Shown here: in pieces, positions 8,394-46,163 of the stretch
Layout of the letters: each line of letters opens with the position of its first letter
Position numbering within the stretch: the stretch's first letter is position 1
Virus record (IMG/VR): IMGVR_UViG_3300012928_002096
Location: 1,549 to 65,548 of that record
Strand: one strand, 5' to 3'
DNA: 64,000 nt
Source: a virus
Notes under the pieces: generated by a model
Database searches by the model: none
Told to the model about the DNA's origin: nothing
The model's input: the letters and a program-made list of their open reading frames with translations, nothing else
Program-made: the position numbers and the translations under genes

Positions 8394-9530
8394 GTGTTAT
8401 ACTATAATATGACTGAAGACTTGAAATGGAGCAACTATGACTTCACGAAAATACCCTTTGATGATATTGTTAGCGTTGGTCAGCGTACTTTATTGTACCG
8501 TGACATATTCACAGTATCTTGGCTCCTCGGAAGATTCTGCAACTACCGATGCAGTTATTGTTGGCCTTATGCCCGTAGTGACCGTAAAGACCATCGTCCT
8601 ACCGAGCTATGCTTACGAACAATCGATGAAATAAAAAGGCAAGCACGTGAGAACGGATTTAATAGTTATCATTTTAGTCTTAGCGGTGGGGAGCCTACTT
8701 TCCATCCTGGCTACTTGGATATTTTACAGCATTTGGCTAATGATGTAGAAAACACAAATTATACTAGTATTCATATGACAAGTAATTGCAGTAGACCTAT
8801 AAAGTGGTTTGAAACATATGTAGAATATGCAAAACCTTTTCATAGAGCAAGTATTACAGCCAGTTTACATACAGAACACTTAAATACAAAGGAGAAGATG
8901 CAGGACTTTGCAGATAAATTAATCCTGTGTCAAGAACACGATGTACAGATTACCATTAATATGGTCATGGTACCTGATTGGTTCGAAAGAGACTGGGAAA
9001 ACGCACTGTTCTTCCACGAACAAGGAATCAACGTCACACTCAAGCCGCAATCCGATCCAACGGCTAGTAAAGTGGTTGAAGGGTACAAAGAAGAAGACCT
9101 AAAACGTTTATGGAACGGAATGCCTCAAAGAGCGTACACTGAAAGTAAAAGGCAGTGGAAAGGTAGACCTAAACCTAAATTTGAAGTTCCTAAAGATATG
9201 ATGTATATGCCAGATGCAAGTGTGCCTTGGCATATGCAAGTGGAATTTAGAGATAAAGCAGGAACAGCTTGGTATATGGATCAAGCAGAAAGATTCAACG
9301 CTTTTAATTTTAACAAATTTAAAGGATGGAAATGCAATGCAGGATATCAAGGAATTATTATTAGAGAGCCTGATGGAAGTATCAAACGTAGTTATTCTTG
9401 TCACGATGTTCCACTTGGCAACATAGAAACAGGATTTAAGTTATTTGATCATCCTATGCCTTGTATCACTGAAAGTTGTGTTAGTAGTGCAGATAGTAAA
9501 ATACCAAAAAGGAAAGAAAATGCATTATAA
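8394..9530 (+). CDS. Radical SAM protein with C-terminal SPASM-like domain
   Basis: CNYRCSYC, LSGGEPT, FKGWKCNAG...SYSC...PCITESC; paralog of 2313-3494. Confidence 0.9.
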   Translation: MLYYNMTEDLKWSNYDFTKIPFDDIVSVGQRTLLYRDIFTVSWLLGRFCNYRCSYCWPYARSDRKDHRPTELCLRTIDEIKRQARENGFNSYHFSLSGGEPTFHPGYLDILQHLANDVENTNYTSIHMTSNCSRPIKWFETYVEYAKPFHRASITASLHTEHLNTKEKMQDFADKLILCQEHDVQITINMVMVPDWFERDWENALFFHEQGINVTLKPQSDPTASKVVEGYKEEDLKRLWNGMPQRAYTESKRQWKGRPKPKFEVPKDMMYMPDASVPWHMQVEFRDKAGTAWYMDQAERFNAFNFNKFKGWKCNAGYQGIIIREPDGSIKRSYSCHDVPLGNIETGFKLFDHPMPCITESCVSSADSKIPKRKENAL

Positions 9531-38384: not shown

Positions 38385-39842
38385 TTAGATCTCCTCAAAT
38401 AGTTCTCCGAACTTTGTGCTTGCGTTTACAGTCTTTTTTCCTACATTAAGTCTTGTGCCTATAACTTGCATCCAAAACTTAGAATATTTTGTTATTAAAT
38501 CTAAACTTTTTTGTCTATCTTTTAAACTAAAGATCTCATCAACAACTTGTTTAAACTCTATACGTTCAAAACGTTCGTCAATCAACATATAAGGATATTC
38601 TCCTGTGTCATAACGTTCGTTTGCTCGTTGTGTGCTTTCAATGTGCATCCATACATTATGACCCATTTGTAATGCATAACTAAATGAGTCCCAACTTGTT
38701 TTGCCTTCTTTACCAATTTTATTCAAATCGCCTGGTTTGTAAATACAAATGTCTTTTATTTGACATTCTTTACTAATAGGAGAGTCTTCAAATGCTTTCA
38801 AAAGACCATCTGTTTCAAGTGCATCTTTAAATGTTCTTGTGTCTGTTGCATACTTCTTATCATCAGCGCCTGGCGACATCATATAACTCCACTTGCCACG
38901 ATCTTCAATACGTATTGTGTGATAAACTTGTCCATTTGCTGTTGCTAAGAAAGGCGATGCACAGTCATATGTAATCATAAAGTTTTTATTATGATACTTA
39001 CGCACTGCACGTTGGATATCTGTAAGCAATACAGCCCATTCTAACTTACTTGTGCCTAAGAAGTGCATAACATCGTGAACACCTTCTTCTAGTAACCCAT
39101 CGTGTATTTGATGCACAAGTCTACGCAATATCAAATCAACATCGCACATATTTTGTCCACCCATTGCCCAGCCATTAAAGTGTGTATCTGGAAACTGTGC
39201 TGGATCGCAATAGTGCTTGAACTCTTCATACCAACTATCTGCATCTGCGTGGTTACTACCTTGTAATACGTTCAGCACTTTGAAGTTGCCACGTCTATTT
39301 GCCATATAGTATTTTGCGTTTATGTGTGTTGCATCTACAGCATCTTGATAACTGTGAATATTTGCTGCCTTTGCTGCCTTAGGATCTTGGAAAGTCCAAG
39401 TTGGAATATCCAACATCATTCCATAGTCCATATATTCTTCCATCCAGTTAACAACAAGTTCACGTTTCTTTTGTGCTTTTGGACATTTAGGATTAGTCCA
39501 GTCACCTTCCCAAAGTCCTTTTGCAATTTGGAAACCACCAGAGTCACCAAGCAACCAACTATTTTCTCTATCGCGGTTGCGTAACATATCTTCTTTTTCT
39601 ACGTGTTTGTTTATATCTAAGTCTGCGTGTCCTGCAGAATACAAAGCCCACTTATAATGAAATGCTCCTTTATCAGGATTCAAAAAGTTTAGACTTTCTA
39701 CTTCATTAAGTCCAGATGGCACACGATTGTAATCAACGTATTCACCGAAACGTTGTTTACCTACAAATGTAGCATAAAAGCCACTTATACTTGGCAGAAA
39801 CACAGCATAATCATTCTGTGTTTGTGTTAGATCCTTTTTCAC
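38385..39842 (-). CDS. dpdA: TGT-fold transglycosylase, DpdA-like (7-deazaguanine insertion into DNA)
   Basis: LGDSGGFQ, MMLDIP, NVLQG, GWAMGG, HFLGTS, YDCAS; folE/queE context. Confidence 0.7.
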   Translation of the reverse strand: MKKDLTQTQNDYAVFLPSISGFYATFVGKQRFGEYVDYNRVPSGLNEVESLNFLNPDKGAFHYKWALYSAGHADLDINKHVEKEDMLRNRDRENSWLLGDSGGFQIAKGLWEGDWTNPKCPKAQKKRELVVNWMEEYMDYGMMLDIPTWTFQDPKAAKAANIHSYQDAVDATHINAKYYMANRRGNFKVLNVLQGSNHADADSWYEEFKHYCDPAQFPDTHFNGWAMGGQNMCDVDLILRRLVHQIHDGLLEEGVHDVMHFLGTSKLEWAVLLTDIQRAVRKYHNKNFMITYDCASPFLATANGQVYHTIRIEDRGKWSYMMSPGADDKKYATDTRTFKDALETDGLLKAFEDSPISKECQIKDICIYKPGDLNKIGKEGKTSWDSFSYALQMGHNVWMHIESTQRANERYDTGEYPYMLIDERFERIEFKQVVDEIFSLKDRQKSLDLITKYSKFWMQVIGTRLNVGKKTVNASTKFGELFEEI

Positions 39843-40230
39843 GTATTGCTCTCTTTTCTAAACTTAACTTATCTTTTTGACTCATTACATATGCGGCGCC
39901 TGCAAGAATTAAAATTGCGCCAGCTTCGGCAACTAGCACCCAAGGATTTGCGTCTTTACTGTGTAGCACAATTAATCTACACAATGCTGTCATTGCAATT
40001 ATAATAGGCAATGTAACAGGTATTCTGTTGCTAATAAAGTATGCACCAACCATACCTACAATCTCAGTATATATAAAAAGCAGAAATAAATCTGCAAGTT
40101 CTATCTTAAGATCCATAATCATAGAATATACATCTAAACCTGCCGCAACAACAGTAAGTATGCCTATTATAGAAAGCATACCTTTTTCTGTCATTACTGT
40201 AGTCCAGTGTAATCTATTTTTTTCTTGCAT
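39811..40230 (-). CDS. psiE: PsiE-family membrane protein
   Basis: ADLFLLFIYTEIVGM...IPVTLPIIIAMTALCRLIVL. Confidence 0.8.
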   Translation of the reverse strand: MQEKNRLHWTTVMTEKGMLSIIGILTVVAAGLDVYSMIMDLKIELADLFLLFIYTEIVGMVGAYFISNRIPVTLPIIIAMTALCRLIVLHSKDANPWVLVAEAGAILILAGAAYVMSQKDKLSLEKRAIREKGSNTNTE

Positions 40231-40958
40231 TATTTCTGTTGCGCTGGTAGAATGTAATCATATTTTGCCATACCACTGTCTACGCTAATTTTCATAGCAC
40301 CTTGATCAGTGATACTCATTGTTTTGTCACCATCTAAGTTTAGTATAGCAAGTGTTTGTGCAACTGGCCACGCCCAAGTATGTGTAAGTTTGCCTTCAAT
40401 ACCGTGTTCAAATGTAAATGAACCTGCGTGTGTTGCTTCGTCACCAAAGTAAAAGTTCAAGTTGTTATCTTCAGTCTTTACTTGGAACACTGTTTCTTCA
40501 CTGTGTGCGCCTGACATCAATTTCATACGTGCAATTGCTGCCATATTAGGCTGAATCTCAACATCATATGTGCTGACTTTGAACTTTACACTTTTTAGTT
40601 TTTCTTCAATAATTGCTTTGTTCATAAAACGATAATCATTTTCAAAATCACCCGATGCATTTTCAAAGTGTATGTGTGTTGGCATAACTTCGCCGTTGCG
40701 TTCTGCTTGTACAACTTCAATCTTTGCATTGTCTTTGTACTCTGGATTTTTCAAGTGATAATCTAATTTGCCAAGATCTGGCATACCAAATGTTCCGTTA
40801 AATTCACCAACTGGCGAATGTGTTGTTGCTGTCATAATCACACTACGATCATCAGCCATACTATCAATTTGAGTATCTTCTTCTGCTGTAACTTTCAGTG
40901 TAGTAATAAAACCTAGTCTGTGTGTATGACTCACAATGTCTTGTAGAATATCTTGCAT
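40230..40958 (-). CDS. Probable DNA polymerase sliding clamp (gp45-like)
   Basis: 242 aa, two-repeat alpha/beta pattern, ends YDYILPA; near DNA polymerase. Confidence 0.55.
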   Translation of the reverse strand: MQDILQDIVSHTHRLGFITTLKVTAEEDTQIDSMADDRSVIMTATTHSPVGEFNGTFGMPDLGKLDYHLKNPEYKDNAKIEVVQAERNGEVMPTHIHFENASGDFENDYRFMNKAIIEEKLKSVKFKVSTYDVEIQPNMAAIARMKLMSGAHSEETVFQVKTEDNNLNFYFGDEATHAGSFTFEHGIEGKLTHTWAWPVAQTLAILNLDGDKTMSITDQGAMKISVDSGMAKYDYILPAQQK

Positions 40959-40979
40959 ATTGTTCTCCGTTGTTGATTA

Positions 40980-41008
40980 ATTATACTAACTTTTGCTTTA
41001 TTTGTCAA
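40980..41008 (-). promoter_or_regulatory. Perfect-consensus sigma70 promoter
   Basis: TTGACA-AATAAAGCAAAAGTTAG-TATAAT. Confidence 0.85.
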
Positions 41009-41759
41009 GTGTTTGTTTCAATTTTGTGTTATAATAAACTGCTGCCGACAATGTATTTAGATTAATATTTTTTTCTGATGCCATTTTTAATAGAGCCTTT
41101 GTGTCTTTTGGAAAACACATTCCACCCCATCCACGTATACCTTCTTCTGGCCATACATAACTATGACTTGAACCTATACGTTTATCATCTGTAATACCTG
41201 CTTGCACTTCTTCATAGTCTAAATTATATGCTTTACAAAAATCAAAAATTTCATTGAAGAAACTTACTTTAGTTGCTAAGAAAGCATTTCTAAAATATTT
41301 TATAGCAATAGCTTCTTCTGGTGTAACAATGTTTATACGGCATTGAGGCCAATTAAAACTATATTGGTCACGCCAGTAATCTGTATCACCACTTAAAATA
41401 ATACAGTCTAATTGTTTAATATCATTCATATAGTTTTTTGCTCTAAGAAACTCTGGAGAAAAACATAATCTATGATTAGGAAAATTATTTTTTATATCTT
41501 GCCAGCCTTGTAAACTTATTGTGCTTTTGATTAATATAGGTGTTGTTTCATTACAAAGTTCTATAGTGCTGTACACAGCACTTACATCACAACTACCATC
41601 TTCTGCTGATGGAGTAGGTACACATATTACCACAGCACTTGTATTTGAAAAATCAGCATATTTGTCTTTAGGTGGATCGTGTATTTCAATTTCTCTTCTA
41701 TGGTCTTTGAATAGTAATTCGTATGCCTGTCCAACAAATCCGTATCCTGCTATAATCAT
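40998..41759 (-). CDS. ugd: UDP-glucose/GDP-mannose 6-dehydrogenase-like (N-terminal and central domains only)
   Basis: IAGYGFVG, ICVPTP, IKSTI, FSPEFLR, KYFRNAFLATKV, GWGGMCFPKD. Confidence 0.85.
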   Translation of the reverse strand: MIIAGYGFVGQAYELLFKDHRREIEIHDPPKDKYADFSNTSAVVICVPTPSAEDGSCDVSAVYSTIELCNETTPILIKSTISLQGWQDIKNNFPNHRLCFSPEFLRAKNYMNDIKQLDCIILSGDTDYWRDQYSFNWPQCRINIVTPEEAIAIKYFRNAFLATKVSFFNEIFDFCKAYNLDYEEVQAGITDDKRIGSSHSYVWPEEGIRGWGGMCFPKDTKALLKMASEKNINLNTLSAAVYYNTKLKQTLDK

Positions 41760-42469
41760 TGTGCTAACTTCGCTTCCTGAAAGTATCCAAGTCTTTCCCA
41801 AGTATCACGATAATCTTTAACATTGAAACAACGTTTTGTATCTAGCTTGACTGCTAATGGCCAATCATTACCACCTTCAACAATTTTGTCACCAAAGAAA
41901 TAAATTTTATCATTCTTGTTAAAATCTTCTAAGATTTGACTTTTATCTCCACCTTTACGATATATGTCTATTCCTGTTTCGCCACCTATAGTTGCAGTTA
42001 TATCAGGAAATTCTAAATTAATTTGGAAAGCAATACTTTCACGTTCTTTGTTTTGCAAATCGTGTTGTATATAAAGTTTACGTTCACCTAGTGTGCAATT
42101 ACGTCCTACTATACTAAAATTAATTGTACCTGTTCTTTCTTCTATATGATTACCTGTACGTAATGGAAAATTACTTGCTTGTAACCAACCGTGCATTAAA
42201 TTATACAATTCTTTAGGAGCATCAAATGTTTTACTTGCTACATTTTGTCCTTTTTTGTAGACATCATTGCCACTGCAATTATAACAAGACTCAACATTTT
42301 CACAAATATCTTCACCAAGCTGTTCGACTGTCTTATTATAATCGCTACCAGTTACTAACCATACTTTATTATGTGTAATAAATGATTTAAAAAATGTTTT
42401 AAACTCTGGATGAATAGTTTGTCTACTTGGTGTAAGTGTGCCGTCAACATCGAATATAAATTTATTCAT
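41756..42469 (-). CDS. Phosphomannomutase (eukaryotic-type, HAD-IIB)
   Basis: FDVDGTLT, VTGSD, IEERTGTINFSIVGR, FFGDK..EGGND. Confidence 0.88.
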   Translation of the reverse strand: MNKFIFDVDGTLTPSRQTIHPEFKTFFKSFITHNKVWLVTGSDYNKTVEQLGEDICENVESCYNCSGNDVYKKGQNVASKTFDAPKELYNLMHGWLQASNFPLRTGNHIEERTGTINFSIVGRNCTLGERKLYIQHDLQNKERESIAFQINLEFPDITATIGGETGIDIYRKGGDKSQILEDFNKNDKIYFFGDKIVEGGNDWPLAVKLDTKRCFNVKDYRDTWERLGYFQEAKLAQ

Positions 42470-42876
42470 TATACTTCACATACTCTCTTTCTTAAATCAC
42501 TAGTGCTAAATCTATGATCACGTTTATTAAAATACAAATCTATTTCACGCTTACGACAAATGTCTTTACCTGTAAAATCTTTGTCTCTGTATTCTTCTCC
42601 AAGTATTCTAACATCTATATGATACATTGTCAATATATCTTCTAGGTCTTTTTCAGTGCCATAAGGAATAATTTCATCAACATACTTTACACCTTTTAAT
42701 TGTGTATAGCGTTCGACAATAGTTTGCACAGGAGCATTTTTTTCTGATCGATCTACACTAGGATCCATTTGTAATGCACATATTAAATAATCGCATTGTT
42801 CTTTTGCTTCACGTAACATTTGTACGTGTCCTGCGTGTAATAAATCAAATGTTGAACAAGTAAATCCTACTTTCAT
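42469..42876 (-). CDS. TagD-like cytidylyltransferase
   Basis: FDLLHAGH (HIGH-type), ERYTQL...VDEII, RFSTS. Confidence 0.88.
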   Translation of the reverse strand: MKVGFTCSTFDLLHAGHVQMLREAKEQCDYLICALQMDPSVDRSEKNAPVQTIVERYTQLKGVKYVDEIIPYGTEKDLEDILTMYHIDVRILGEEYRDKDFTGKDICRKREIDLYFNKRDHRFSTSDLRKRVCEV

Positions 42877-43217
42877 TAATGATTCCGCCTACCATCAAAT
42901 GCACAAACAAAGTAAAGTTCTTGGTCTTTACCTTGATACATATCAGATTCTACTCTATGATGTATACCATCTTTAATCAATACAACATCACCAGGACCAA
43001 CTGCCATAGGCTCATCATTTAGATACATTGTGCCTTTACCTCTAATAAAGAAATAAATTTCTTCTTGTCCTTTGTGTATATGTCCTGACGTAGATTTGCC
43101 AGGCTTCATTGTTGTACTACTTAATACTAAATTTTGTAACAGTGTGTTATCTTTAACAATGTATCGTTCGTCTTGTTTAGCGATAACTCCACCAATATCT
43201 TGTATATCTACTTTCAA
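42876..43217 (-). CDS. Cupin-domain protein (mannose-6-phosphate isomerase-like)
   Basis: GHIHKGQEEIYFFIRG...GDVVLI..GIHHRV. Confidence 0.85.
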   Translation of the reverse strand: MKVDIQDIGGVIAKQDERYIVKDNTLLQNLVLSSTTMKPGKSTSGHIHKGQEEIYFFIRGKGTMYLNDEPMAVGPGDVVLIKDGIHHRVESDMYQGKDQELYFVCAFDGRRNH

Positions 43218-43498
43218 AAGTCTATCTCCCTTCCTTTATATTCCCAAGTTCCATATCTAGTTGGTTCGGCTTCTTTTGGCCCGCCATATTCTTTAGCTTT
43301 TTCTTCTGTAACTTTTTGTTCAGGTATATCAGGGTCTTTACGTGCATATTTTATATCACAATATCCACAAACAACATAATGTCCATCGTGTGGTATTCTA
43401 AGATAAACTTTTGGGTGGTCATTGTTATCTCCACTACACGCAACACTGTCGCCATCTATGTAAATAATGCGTTCTTCAAATCCTTCGATTCTTTCCAT
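43214..43498 (-). CDS. zf-CHCC (NDUFS6-like) + DUF1674 (SdhAF4-like) fusion
   Basis: VACSGDNNDHPKVYL...VVCGYC followed by EYGGPKEAEPTRYGTWEYKGREIDF; GGAG RBS before ATG 43498. Confidence 0.8.
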   Translation of the reverse strand: MERIEGFEERIIYIDGDSVACSGDNNDHPKVYLRIPHDGHYVVCGYCDIKYARKDPDIPEQKVTEEKAKEYGGPKEAEPTRYGTWEYKGREIDF

Positions 43499-43499
43499 A

Positions 43500-46163
43500 T
43501 TAACTCCATTCAAATAAATTGTTAAATGTTGTTTTTTGCTTTGTGCTTTCTAAGTCATATTTCAACACACCAATTAAGTTGTCTAGTTTGTTGTCAATAA
43601 TAACTTCTTCCATTGCATCGCCATCAAAAGGAAGCTCTTTAAACCAATCAGGAAGTCTTAGTTGATCTGTTGGATAAGCAACAGAAGTATATCCTAATGG
43701 ATTTTGTTTCAGTTTACAAACAATAACTTTCATACCATCTACAATTTCTTGGGAATATTTATCACCATTCATACGTTTCAATGTATTCCAGTTGATGCTT
43801 GCTCTTACGTGTCCAGGCATATTTGCTTTGCCTTGCTTTTCTTCTAGTCGTTGATAATGTCCAATCTTGTTTGCACGTTTGGGTGAACCTTTCTCAAATC
43901 CTGGACGTTCTTTAAACTCACGCCTAAATTCACTTATACTTTCTAGTAATTCTTTTTCGGGCTGTACTGCTAATACCATATCAAGCAATGTTTTCAAATA
44001 GTTTTGCATAAACACTGGAGTATCACTACGCTTTAAGTCCAAGCCCATAGCTTTAACTTTACCTAATGCACCATCCTTATCTTTTCTATCACCTTCTAAG
44101 TCATACACTCGCACTGCATAACGTTTCTTTGTAATAAACAAGCCTGTGTCTGCAACAACTTCTCTTGCGGCAGCAATAACCTCACTACGTGGGCGAGGAC
44201 AATGAAATGCGTCACGCATAAAATCTGGAAATGTTGTGTTTGCTTGTTCGCATAACTGGTCATACAATGTAATTACATTATCTTTACCCCAAGGCACAGT
44301 ACCAGCAGTAATTTCTTCTTCAAGTACAGGATACGCACTAAAGTAAACAGAGTCTGTATCACCATATATAATTGCTTTACCTACGTGATCATATTCGCCT
44401 GTAATAATCTTATTCACTTCACTTGCCATATGCTTTGCAATTTGTCTGCCAGTTAGTGTTGTTGACTGTCCAATACGTTTATCAAAAAATCTACAGCCTG
44501 GATTCAAAATAGCACCATACAAACTGTTCAAGTTAATCTTTTTGACAAGTTGTCTTTTGTCCCAAAATGCTATTTCTGTTTCGTTGCCTGCATCAATTGC
44601 TTTACGCATTTTTGCTTGTAATTCTTTACGCTCTGCATACCAACGTTTCAGCAAACCTGGAATAACACCTTCGACTTCTGTTGTAAACACAGTACCGTTA
44701 GCACTAAGCATCCACGGTTGATGGCTATCAAAAATAAGTTTGTATATTTCTGCACCACTTAGCACGTGGCTTGTACCATCTTCTAAATCTAATGTAAGTG
44801 CAACGTCTTTGCGTTGTTCCATTACAGCATCATATTCTAATGTAGCAAACTTACCTTCCCAACTTGCCGCAAAACTTTTCTTTTCAAGTGTTTGTGCATT
44901 GTGTAAAAACTCTTCAGTCAAGTCTGGACGTATTTGTCCAATAATAGTTTCTGGAGCCATATTCATTGCACGAATAATACTTGGATATAGACTGTTCAAG
45001 TCCATACTACCAATCCACTTATGTACACCTTTTTTAGGATACGCAACATAAGCACCTGCCGCGGCAGTTTGCCCTTCGTGTTGTACTCTGTTAGGTGCTT
45101 GCATACCTCTTCTGTGTGCTTCATTAACAATTGCTTGCTCTGTAACTGCAACTGCTCCTGCTGTTGTTTGTAATAACACAGTATTATCGTGTGCAATTTC
45201 ATTTGCAAGATCAATAAAGCGTAACTTCTTATCAATTTTATCTAGTAGTGCAACGTCTTGTCTATTGTATTCAATAAACTTTTTAAAGTCGTTGTTGTAA
45301 AGTTGATCAAGTGTGCCTTCATACACAGTCTTGTTTTCACCAACTTCCATTTCACCAATAGCATCAAGTCTGTATGTGTGACGTTCTTCATATGTATATT
45401 TGCGATACAGTTCAAGATAGTCCATATGCACTCTACCTATTGTATCAAACGTTTCAGCAGTTTTGCCAAACTTTTCAAACTCTCTACGTCTTGGAAGTTG
45501 CTTCCACAAACAAAAGCGCCTAGTGTCATCTTTGCTCAACACCCGTGAAACACGATTTACAGTGTAAGGAATATCATAACCTTCACTGTTCCAGCCGCTC
45601 AATATATCTGCATCTTCTATAACATCAAGAAATGCTTGTAGCATATCTCCTTCATTTTCATACAAATATGTATTATCAAAATCTGCACATTCTGCTTGTG
45701 CTTCTTCCATAGTTAGTGTTTTGGGCGGCAATGCAAATGTTACCAATGCATCTAACCATTGTAAATGCACAGTAATAGCAGTAATTGGCATAAAAGGATC
45801 GCTTGGATCAGCAAAGCCTCTATCTGGATCAAAATCAGTCTCAATATCAAAAAAGCAAACATTTAGTTTAGGAGCATCTTGGTTGAGATAGTGTTCACTC
45901 AAACATTGAAATATTGGATTTACATCCGACTCAAACATTTTTTTGCCTTTGTTAATGGCAAGTTCTTTTCTAAAATCTTTTGTATTTTTACAAACTACAC
46001 GTTGTAGTGGATCTCCATAAATGCTTTTGTATTTGCCACGTGGATCTTCATAGTAAAATGTATACTTTGCTTGATATTCAGTAAAATGCCTTTTACCATC
46101 CTTGCGTTCTACTGCACGGATAATATCTGCATCTCTATCAAAAAAAGCGTCTACGTATGGCAT
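43500..46163 (-). CDS. polB: Family B DNA polymerase
   Basis: Exo FDIETD, NSEGYD; Pol DLNSLYPS, KINLNSLYG, YGDTDS. Confidence 0.97.
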   Translation of the reverse strand: MPYVDAFFDRDADIIRAVERKDGKRHFTEYQAKYTFYYEDPRGKYKSIYGDPLQRVVCKNTKDFRKELAINKGKKMFESDVNPIFQCLSEHYLNQDAPKLNVCFFDIETDFDPDRGFADPSDPFMPITAITVHLQWLDALVTFALPPKTLTMEEAQAECADFDNTYLYENEGDMLQAFLDVIEDADILSGWNSEGYDIPYTVNRVSRVLSKDDTRRFCLWKQLPRRREFEKFGKTAETFDTIGRVHMDYLELYRKYTYEERHTYRLDAIGEMEVGENKTVYEGTLDQLYNNDFKKFIEYNRQDVALLDKIDKKLRFIDLANEIAHDNTVLLQTTAGAVAVTEQAIVNEAHRRGMQAPNRVQHEGQTAAAGAYVAYPKKGVHKWIGSMDLNSLYPSIIRAMNMAPETIIGQIRPDLTEEFLHNAQTLEKKSFAASWEGKFATLEYDAVMEQRKDVALTLDLEDGTSHVLSGAEIYKLIFDSHQPWMLSANGTVFTTEVEGVIPGLLKRWYAERKELQAKMRKAIDAGNETEIAFWDKRQLVKKINLNSLYGAILNPGCRFFDKRIGQSTTLTGRQIAKHMASEVNKIITGEYDHVGKAIIYGDTDSVYFSAYPVLEEEITAGTVPWGKDNVITLYDQLCEQANTTFPDFMRDAFHCPRPRSEVIAAAREVVADTGLFITKKRYAVRVYDLEGDRKDKDGALGKVKAMGLDLKRSDTPVFMQNYLKTLLDMVLAVQPEKELLESISEFRREFKERPGFEKGSPKRANKIGHYQRLEEKQGKANMPGHVRASINWNTLKRMNGDKYSQEIVDGMKVIVCKLKQNPLGYTSVAYPTDQLRLPDWFKELPFDGDAMEEVIIDNKLDNLIGVLKYDLESTKQKTTFNNLFEWS

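Follow-up and report, generated by a model that had tools for sequence, protein, structure and literature searches.

A marine phage gene joining an NDUFS6-type zinc ribbon to an SDHAF4-type C-terminal tail

We analyzed a 64,000-nucleotide stretch of viral DNA (positions 1,549 to 65,548 of the IMG/VR virus record IMGVR_UViG_3300012928_002096), referred to here as the window, and examined a gene of 94 codons and a TGA stop on its minus strand (P0001; 43214..43498, with the ATG at 43498 and the TGA at 43216-43214). Its 94-residue product joins a zinc ribbon of the zf-CHCC family, to which the complex I protein NDUFS6 (NUMM) belongs, to a C-terminal tail of the DUF1674 family, to which the SdhA-binding factor SDHAF4 belongs. 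The fused protein is a new domain architecture and contains new viral subfamilies of the two known families. We tentatively favor the reading that it is a phage host-takeover or auxiliary protein made from two respiratory-chain-derived modules, in which the tail would dock onto an SdhA-type flavoprotein of the host as a portable tag and the zinc ribbon would serve as payload or adaptor.

Two families in one protein

A preliminary description of this DNA had assigned the N-terminal half to the zf-CHCC family, and Pfam hmmscan bore this out with a score of 38.3 bits against the curated cut-off of 27 for PF10276 (E 1.4e-9; profile positions 2-37 of 37) over residues 17-51 (43346..43450, minus strand). 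The ligand spacing given there, C-x7-H, was incorrect. The zinc ligand set is C21-x6-H28-x15-C44-x2-C47, encoded on the minus strand at 43436-43438, 43415-43417, 43367-43369 and 43358-43360, respectively, and all four residues are invariant in an alignment of 54 sequences. When the N-terminal half was compared with PDB sequences by phmmer, it matched the alphaproteobacterial nuclear magnetic resonance structures 2JRR and 2JVM, chain R of Paracoccus denitrificans complex I (8QBY) and mitochondrial NDUFS6/NUMM. An AlphaFold2 model based on the 54-sequence alignment showed residues 10-55 as a five-stranded zinc ribbon with a predicted local distance difference test score (pLDDT) of ∼72. The top 33 matches of this model to the PDB by Foldseek were all NDUFS6/NUMM chains or the isolated bacterial homologues 2JVM and 2JRR, and the match to 8qby_R had 40% identity over 48 columns, a root-mean-square deviation of 1.9 Å and a template modeling score of 0.68 by target. 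These results point to an NDUFS6-type zinc-ribbon fold for residues 10-55, as predicted by a model of moderate confidence.

Like NDUFS6/NUMM, the phage finger has the CHCC ligands, an HP.V(Y/W) strand and a C.YC knuckle, and it is small like the bacterial forms. Its Cys-to-His loop is 2-3 residues shorter than in the bacterial zf-CHCC forms aligned with it by phmmer (C-x6-H, with an NDHP signature), and the protein differs from NDUFS6/NUMM in having no mitochondrial N-terminal extension and in carrying the SDHAF4 tail at its C terminus. The phage-type finger can be written as C.GE.NDHP.VYY.(V/I)P..G..(V/I)CGYCDIKF, whereas the cellular type reads CDGG.G.LGHPRV(Y/W)L.

The C-terminal half matched DUF1674 (PF07896) with 46.4 bits against a cut-off of 23.5 (E 5.1e-12; profile positions 10-50 of 50). 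The match covers residues 54-94 of 94 and ends on the last residue, in agreement with the preliminary description, which had placed a DUF1674 segment exactly at the C terminus. Between the finger and the tail proper (residues 68-94; 43217..43297, minus strand) lies a variable linker (residues 52-67; 43298..43345, minus strand), and the tail ends in Asp-Phe (D93-F94-COOH). In a phmmer search of PDB sequences, the C-terminal 29 residues matched the SDHAF4 chain of the human SDHA-SDHAF4 structures (8DYD chain C, residues 70-98; 8DYE).

Free SDHAF4 has a disordered C-terminal segment, which becomes folded on SDHA, where it obstructs the substrate site and covers the surfaces for SDHB and SDHAF2 (PMC10784507). 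In the human protein, D107-F108, a terminal pair strictly conserved in the family, faces H407 and R451 in the dicarboxylate site of SDHA, E84 and E92 contact R171 in the initial attachment, and mutation of E84, E92, D107 or F108 impairs SDHA binding or SDHAF2 displacement (PMC10784507). By HMMER alignment these four residues correspond to E70, E78, D93 and F94 of the phage protein; all four are kept. The table of SDHAF4 contacts also lists R95, K102, G103 and D98, the carboxylate of D98 being hydrogen-bonded to the catalytic SDHA Thr308 (PMC10784507), and R95, K102 and G103 are kept in the phage tail as well. Disorder is predicted for the tail, pLDDT being below 50 over residues 59-93 of the AlphaFold2 model. 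The phage protein thus resembles SDHAF4, Sdh8 and bacterial DUF1674 proteins, in which GGP..EPTR(Y/F)G.WE.KG...DF ends the protein and disorder is predicted in the free state. It differs from SDHAF4 in that its N-terminal part is a folded zinc ribbon and not a low-complexity stretch.

The tails at all 54 viral loci in IMG/VR read EPTR(Y/F).TWE.KG(R/K)(E/D)(I/V)DF, whereas all 80 cellular loci have GDWE, in most cases followed by GRC.DF. The Asp of GDWE, a hallmark of the SDHAF4 family that Pfam does not treat as a defining residue, is therefore replaced by Thr in 54/54 viral loci and retained in 80/80 cellular ones. The preliminary description had recorded this replacement in the window protein; the Thr is present, but it is not a one-off and instead marks the whole phage subfamily. 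Judged by these signatures, both halves belong to phage-specific subfamilies.

Conservation, selection and occurrence in phages and cells

A search of 5.8 billion proteins returned three fused clusters, with 97, 69 and 66% identity, as well as relatives consisting of the zinc finger only. Close relatives were present at ten IMG/VR loci, nine of which are fused (L006-L014) and one of which has the zinc finger alone (L015); a further, divergent fused locus, L124, passes both Pfam models. The fusion is conserved directly after the gene for DNA polymerase (polB) in at least 11 IMG/VR contigs. In ENA contigs carrying an 80-residue allele, the order polB, fusion, cupin, cytidylyltransferase, phosphomannomutase (PMM) and UGDH is kept. 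Three forms of the linker were seen, one of ∼5 residues, one of 18-19 residues as in the window, and a different one of ∼24 residues in L124; the linker of the L009, L012 and L003 alleles is 13 residues shorter.

We estimated the ratio of nonsynonymous to synonymous substitution rates (dN/dS) by the Nei-Gojobori method for comparisons with dS of 0.2-1.7. For the zinc-finger half the ratio came to 0.05-0.15 and for the tail to about 0-0.05, values that place both under strong purifying selection. The gene is placed as the preliminary description had placed it, directly downstream of the DNA polymerase: its ATG lies 1 nucleotide after the stop codon of a T4-type family B polB (43500..46163, minus strand). 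A GGAG ribosome-binding site predicted from the sequence (43504..43507, minus strand) lies 5 nucleotides before the ATG, within the last polB codons. The GGAG, the polB-adjacent start, the conserved relatives and the low dN/dS demonstrate that the fusion gene is real.

No other gene in the neighborhood has diverged as far as the fusion gene. Compared with L009, L003, L012 and L124, the window fusion is 51-75% identical, and polB is 89-98% identical. In the comparison with L124, polB is 91% and the cytidylyltransferase 96% identical, whereas the fusion gene is only 51% identical. Against L009, dS was 1.40 for the fusion gene, a noisy estimate for so short a gene, and 0.16-0.64 for six flanking genes, with a dN/dS of 0.06 for the fusion. 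This pattern suggests that old, divergent alleles have been exchanged by recombination with the fused architecture retained.

To look for the fusion in cells, GTDB species genomes of the Alpha- and Gammaproteobacteria and the Burkholderiales were scanned for DUF1674. At least 519 loci were obtained, and at none of the best 80 did a zf-CHCC pattern lie within 1.5 kb. Five marine proteobacterial genomes were also checked (four labeled alphaproteobacterial or Rickettsiales and one Pseudomonadota); a zf-CHCC match was present in four of the five and, in both cases that could be compared, lay away from the DUF1674 gene. A HMMER search of 1.84 billion cluster representatives gave no sequence spanning both halves among the 150 best matches; these representatives are clustered at 50% identity, so that fused members can hide behind single-domain ones. 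In the ESM Atlas, zf-CHCC was the sole common Pfam family in 95 of the 100 nearest large clusters. In these comparisons the fusion was thus confined to phages. As none of the cellular loci and best-scoring sequences compared here carries it, we conclude that it is not a transduced host gene, an origin that would have undercut the preliminary description.

Among cultured phages, neither P0001 nor the commonest tail protein had a tblastn match in 50,697 phage records. PHROGs contained no family for either half, and a literature search found no description of SDHAF4-like or NDUFS6-like genes in phages.

The phages, and the two modules apart

The source record is a 67-kb IMG/VR viral record with a completeness rated at 19% and a G+C content of 35%. 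The window polB shares ∼50% identity with its counterparts in Sinorhizobium phage Phosso and Agrobacterium phage Atu_ph07, and 59% with that of G311, a complete marine phage of 342.6 kb with terminal repeats. On the basis of these polB relatives, we assign the window, as a genome fragment, to an uncultured marine jumbo phage. The zf-CHCC carriers in IMG/VR are T4-like, and L202, one of these carriers, encodes a UvsW with no more than 56% identity to the UvsW of OM43, SAR11 and cyanobacterial myophages. An alphaproteobacterial host, as proposed in the preliminary description, is plausible from the affinities of polB, which is nearest to Rhizobiaceae jumbo phages, and from the distribution of both families, DUF1674 being found in 198 of 301 sampled alphaproteobacterial genomes. 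However, Gammaproteobacteria and Burkholderiales commonly have DUF1674 as well, and this host is therefore not established. A search of the window for tRNAs as a clue to the host found none.

The phage-type tail also closes other proteins. A 229-residue protein consists of an Asp/Asn beta-hydroxylase (2-oxoglutarate oxygenase, AspH-like; 35.4 bits) followed by the phage-type tail (37.7 bits), and its gene was found in the complete G311 (L120:9401-10087) and on a second contig, L121. A 308-residue open frame on a single contig (L122:9164-10087) joins a class-3 lipase (70 bits) to the tail (45.5 bits). P0073, a metagenomic protein of 87 residues, joins a Cys-rich DUF1289 domain (58.8 bits) to a phage-type tail; a GCGRSPTGKC module like that of P0073 also occurs in L111, L125 and L127. 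The tail further closes coiled-coil proteins and is present on a very common family of 68-81 residues with no other recognized domain. The L124 linker, IIDPDQFNNKAQKQE, recurs in the N-terminal part of one stand-alone tail protein, P0043, and this shared segment points to shuffling between the fusion gene and stand-alone tail genes.

At L132:9639-10054, a stand-alone zf-CHCC gene (57 residues) overlaps at ATGA with an 81-residue gene encoding a transmembrane helix, a Cys cluster and a phage-type tail. NqrM was considered for the transmembrane and Cys-rich module of this locus and was not supported (Pfam 10.1 bits, E 0.74). Upstream, a 104-residue open reading frame (8578-8892) is ClpS-like by eye.

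The phage-type zinc finger is present in at least 126 IMG/VR contigs. Among the best 80 phage zf-CHCC loci, 10 have the fusion to the tail, in 3 the protein ends in ...GIDNDF, and the rest are stand-alone genes of ∼50-80 residues. We rejected the idea that the stand-alone genes are recent truncations of the fusion, since no downstream remnant of the tail was present in any frame. One zf-CHCC subgroup (P0024, P0037 and P0046; L205, L230 and L237) ends in ...MDK(H/Y)(F/Y)NG(T/S)T(Y/F).K(D/N)GI(D/E)NDF-COOH, with a terminal Asp-Phe as in SDHAF4. That the ...K(D/N)GI(D/E)NDF ending is a degenerate SDHAF4 tail was likewise rejected, hhalign against DUF1674 giving a probability of 0.6%. Stand-alone zf-CHCC genes were also seen inside NDP-sugar or glycosylation clusters, at L239:1168-4472 (G311) and in L236, L170 and L015.

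In the window, the fusion gene is followed by a cupin gene (42876..43217, minus strand), whose TTG start overlaps the fusion stop (TTGA), and then by genes for a cytidylyltransferase and PMM, a truncated UGDH-like gene, a conserved gene of 242 codons and psiE. A Pfam scan of the 242-residue product gave no match. The gene immediately after it (39811-40230, minus strand) encodes a homologue of the phosphate-starvation-inducible protein PsiE (70.7 bits). The stretch from polB to the 242-codon gene (40230-43500) is a variable cargo slot, which in the window lineage holds the fusion and sugar-nucleotide genes and in G311 (L238:4291-5787) an SGNH-like gene and a methyltransferase; the cupin gene is missing in L012 and L124.

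Possible roles of the fused protein

Docking of the tail onto an SdhA-type flavoprotein of the host is a real but tentative possibility, suggested by the retention of experimentally validated contacts under very strong purifying selection together with the predicted disorder. According to this proposal, the C-terminal 27 residues would be a phage-adapted SDHAF4 tail, disordered when free. The cellular tail folds on free flavinylated SdhA, with its terminal Asp-Phe plugging the dicarboxylate site and the SdhB interface covered, and the phage tail may still dock in this way. Marine phages would use the tail as a portable address tag, whose payload or adaptor in the present protein would be the NDUFS6/NUMM-like zinc ribbon. 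Cellular relatives of the ribbon bind the peripheral arm of complex I, and the phage ribbon may also do so in the host. The outcome of docking could be either help with assembly or sequestration and inhibition of the enzyme.

An SdhA-like flavoprotein was sought in the complete relative G311, and none was found. Since G311 has the tail, any SdhA-type target must be host-encoded. In G001, a single PF00890 match was present in a 354-residue frame and covered only the FAD-binding N terminus (profile positions 2-37); this frame is probably the UDP-galactopyranose mutase seen in L015.

A more extended form of the proposal is rather doubtful. It holds that the tag EPTR(Y/F).TWE.KG(R/K)(E/D)(I/V)DF-COOH, placed on many payloads, would deliver each of them to the succinate dehydrogenase flavoprotein of the host. 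Takeover would then occur at the junction of the tricarboxylic acid cycle and the respiratory chain, with the window gene physically linking a complex I-type and a complex II-type module.

Several observations weigh against docking on SdhA. In the window protein T84 replaces SDHAF4 Asp98, and phage tails have Glu in place of Cys105, so that the target or the binding mode of the tail may have shifted. With these two substitutions, the tail could either have adapted to the SdhA of a particular host or have moved to a different target. The AlphaFold2 model is of moderate confidence only, with a mean pLDDT of 56.8. In addition, most phage zf-CHCC genes stand alone, many of them within sugar-nucleotide clusters, which hints at a non-respiratory role of the finger.

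This last observation leads to an alternative that we consider unlikely, in which both modules have been exapted and are no longer respiratory. The ribbon would then serve or regulate sugar-nucleotide or DNA-modification clusters, and the tail would bind another partner, such as the flavoprotein NadB or a phage protein. Consistent with this idea, a UGDH-like gene neighbors zf-CHCC at 16 of the 80 loci and a KdsA-like gene at 8 of the 80, glycosyltransferases also being among the neighbors. In G311 and L236, the finger gene lies between a probable NDP-hexose C-methyltransferase and an epimerase/aminotransferase, names that were assigned by eye from sequence. The window gene itself stands first in a row, ahead of the genes for cupin, cytidylyltransferase, PMM and UGDH, signature changes specific to phages are present in both of its halves, and divergence exceeding that of all neighbors is often seen in host-interaction or accessory cassettes. 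However, the neighbors are heterogeneous (UvsW, DUF6267 and many of unknown function), and the link to sugars may only reflect islands of accessory genes. The retention of SDHA-contact residues under such strong selection also argues against a tail with an unrelated partner, as does the lack of an SdhA-like flavoprotein in G311, where only SdhA-like partners were considered.

The preliminary description had proposed that a single phage protein tunes or hijacks both respiratory entry points. In its fullest form, the ribbon would be a NUMM/NDUFS6 subunit or a late complex I assembly factor and the tail a true SDHAF4 promoting SdhA-SdhB assembly; the phage would sustain or tune both points of electron entry, and the fusion would be mere gene compaction. 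Both halves are bona fide family members by hidden Markov model and by fold, and both families co-occur as separate genes in Alphaproteobacteria. In phages, moreover, L132 has a zf-CHCC gene next to a tail-bearing gene, and the complete G311 has both a stand-alone zf-CHCC gene and the oxygenase-tail gene. Against these points, only 10 of the best 80 phage zf-CHCC loci are fused, so that the two functions are not generally linked, and in other phages the tail is joined to unrelated enzymes. In the short-linker alleles, ∼5 residues separate the modules, which makes it awkward to serve two separate complexes at once, and D98T removes a conserved SDHA contact. We regard a double respiratory helper as quite improbable. 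The proposal of the preliminary description that both entry points are tuned or hijacked is unsupported. The loss of Asp98, the mostly stand-alone fingers and the presence of the tail on unrelated domains favor a portable docking tail over a dedicated complex I and II device.

For a short gene from metagenomic assemblies, one might suspect an assembly error, a frameshift or two genes recently joined by read-through without any function, but such an origin is excluded by the recurrence of the same architecture in independent samples and assemblies (ENA and IMG/VR) with three linkers and 51-97% identity, by the absence of internal stops and by the purifying selection on both halves.

Cyanophages carry PTOX and photosynthesis genes that act on the energy metabolism of the host. 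The fusion resembles these auxiliary metabolic genes in being a host-derived energy-metabolism module in a marine phage. It differs from them in that they encode enzymes or subunits, whereas the fusion consists of an accessory-subunit fold and the docking peptide of an assembly factor. If the tail still docks onto SdhA, phages would act on host respiration by mimicry of an assembly factor and not by supplying extra enzymes, and the fusion would represent a new class of auxiliary or host-takeover gene. The phage tails would then also offer, for studies of complex II assembly, naturally occurring SdhA-directed peptides in which the substitutions are defined (D98T and C105E). If the tail indeed works as a portable tag, it would represent an unrecognized strategy of host takeover. 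The fusion also hints, in the manner of a Rosetta stone, that proteins of the NUMM and SDHAF4 types can act together. It is, lastly, a marker of a large group of uncultured marine phages, T4-like and jumbo, the hosts of which could be narrowed to bacteria having these factors.
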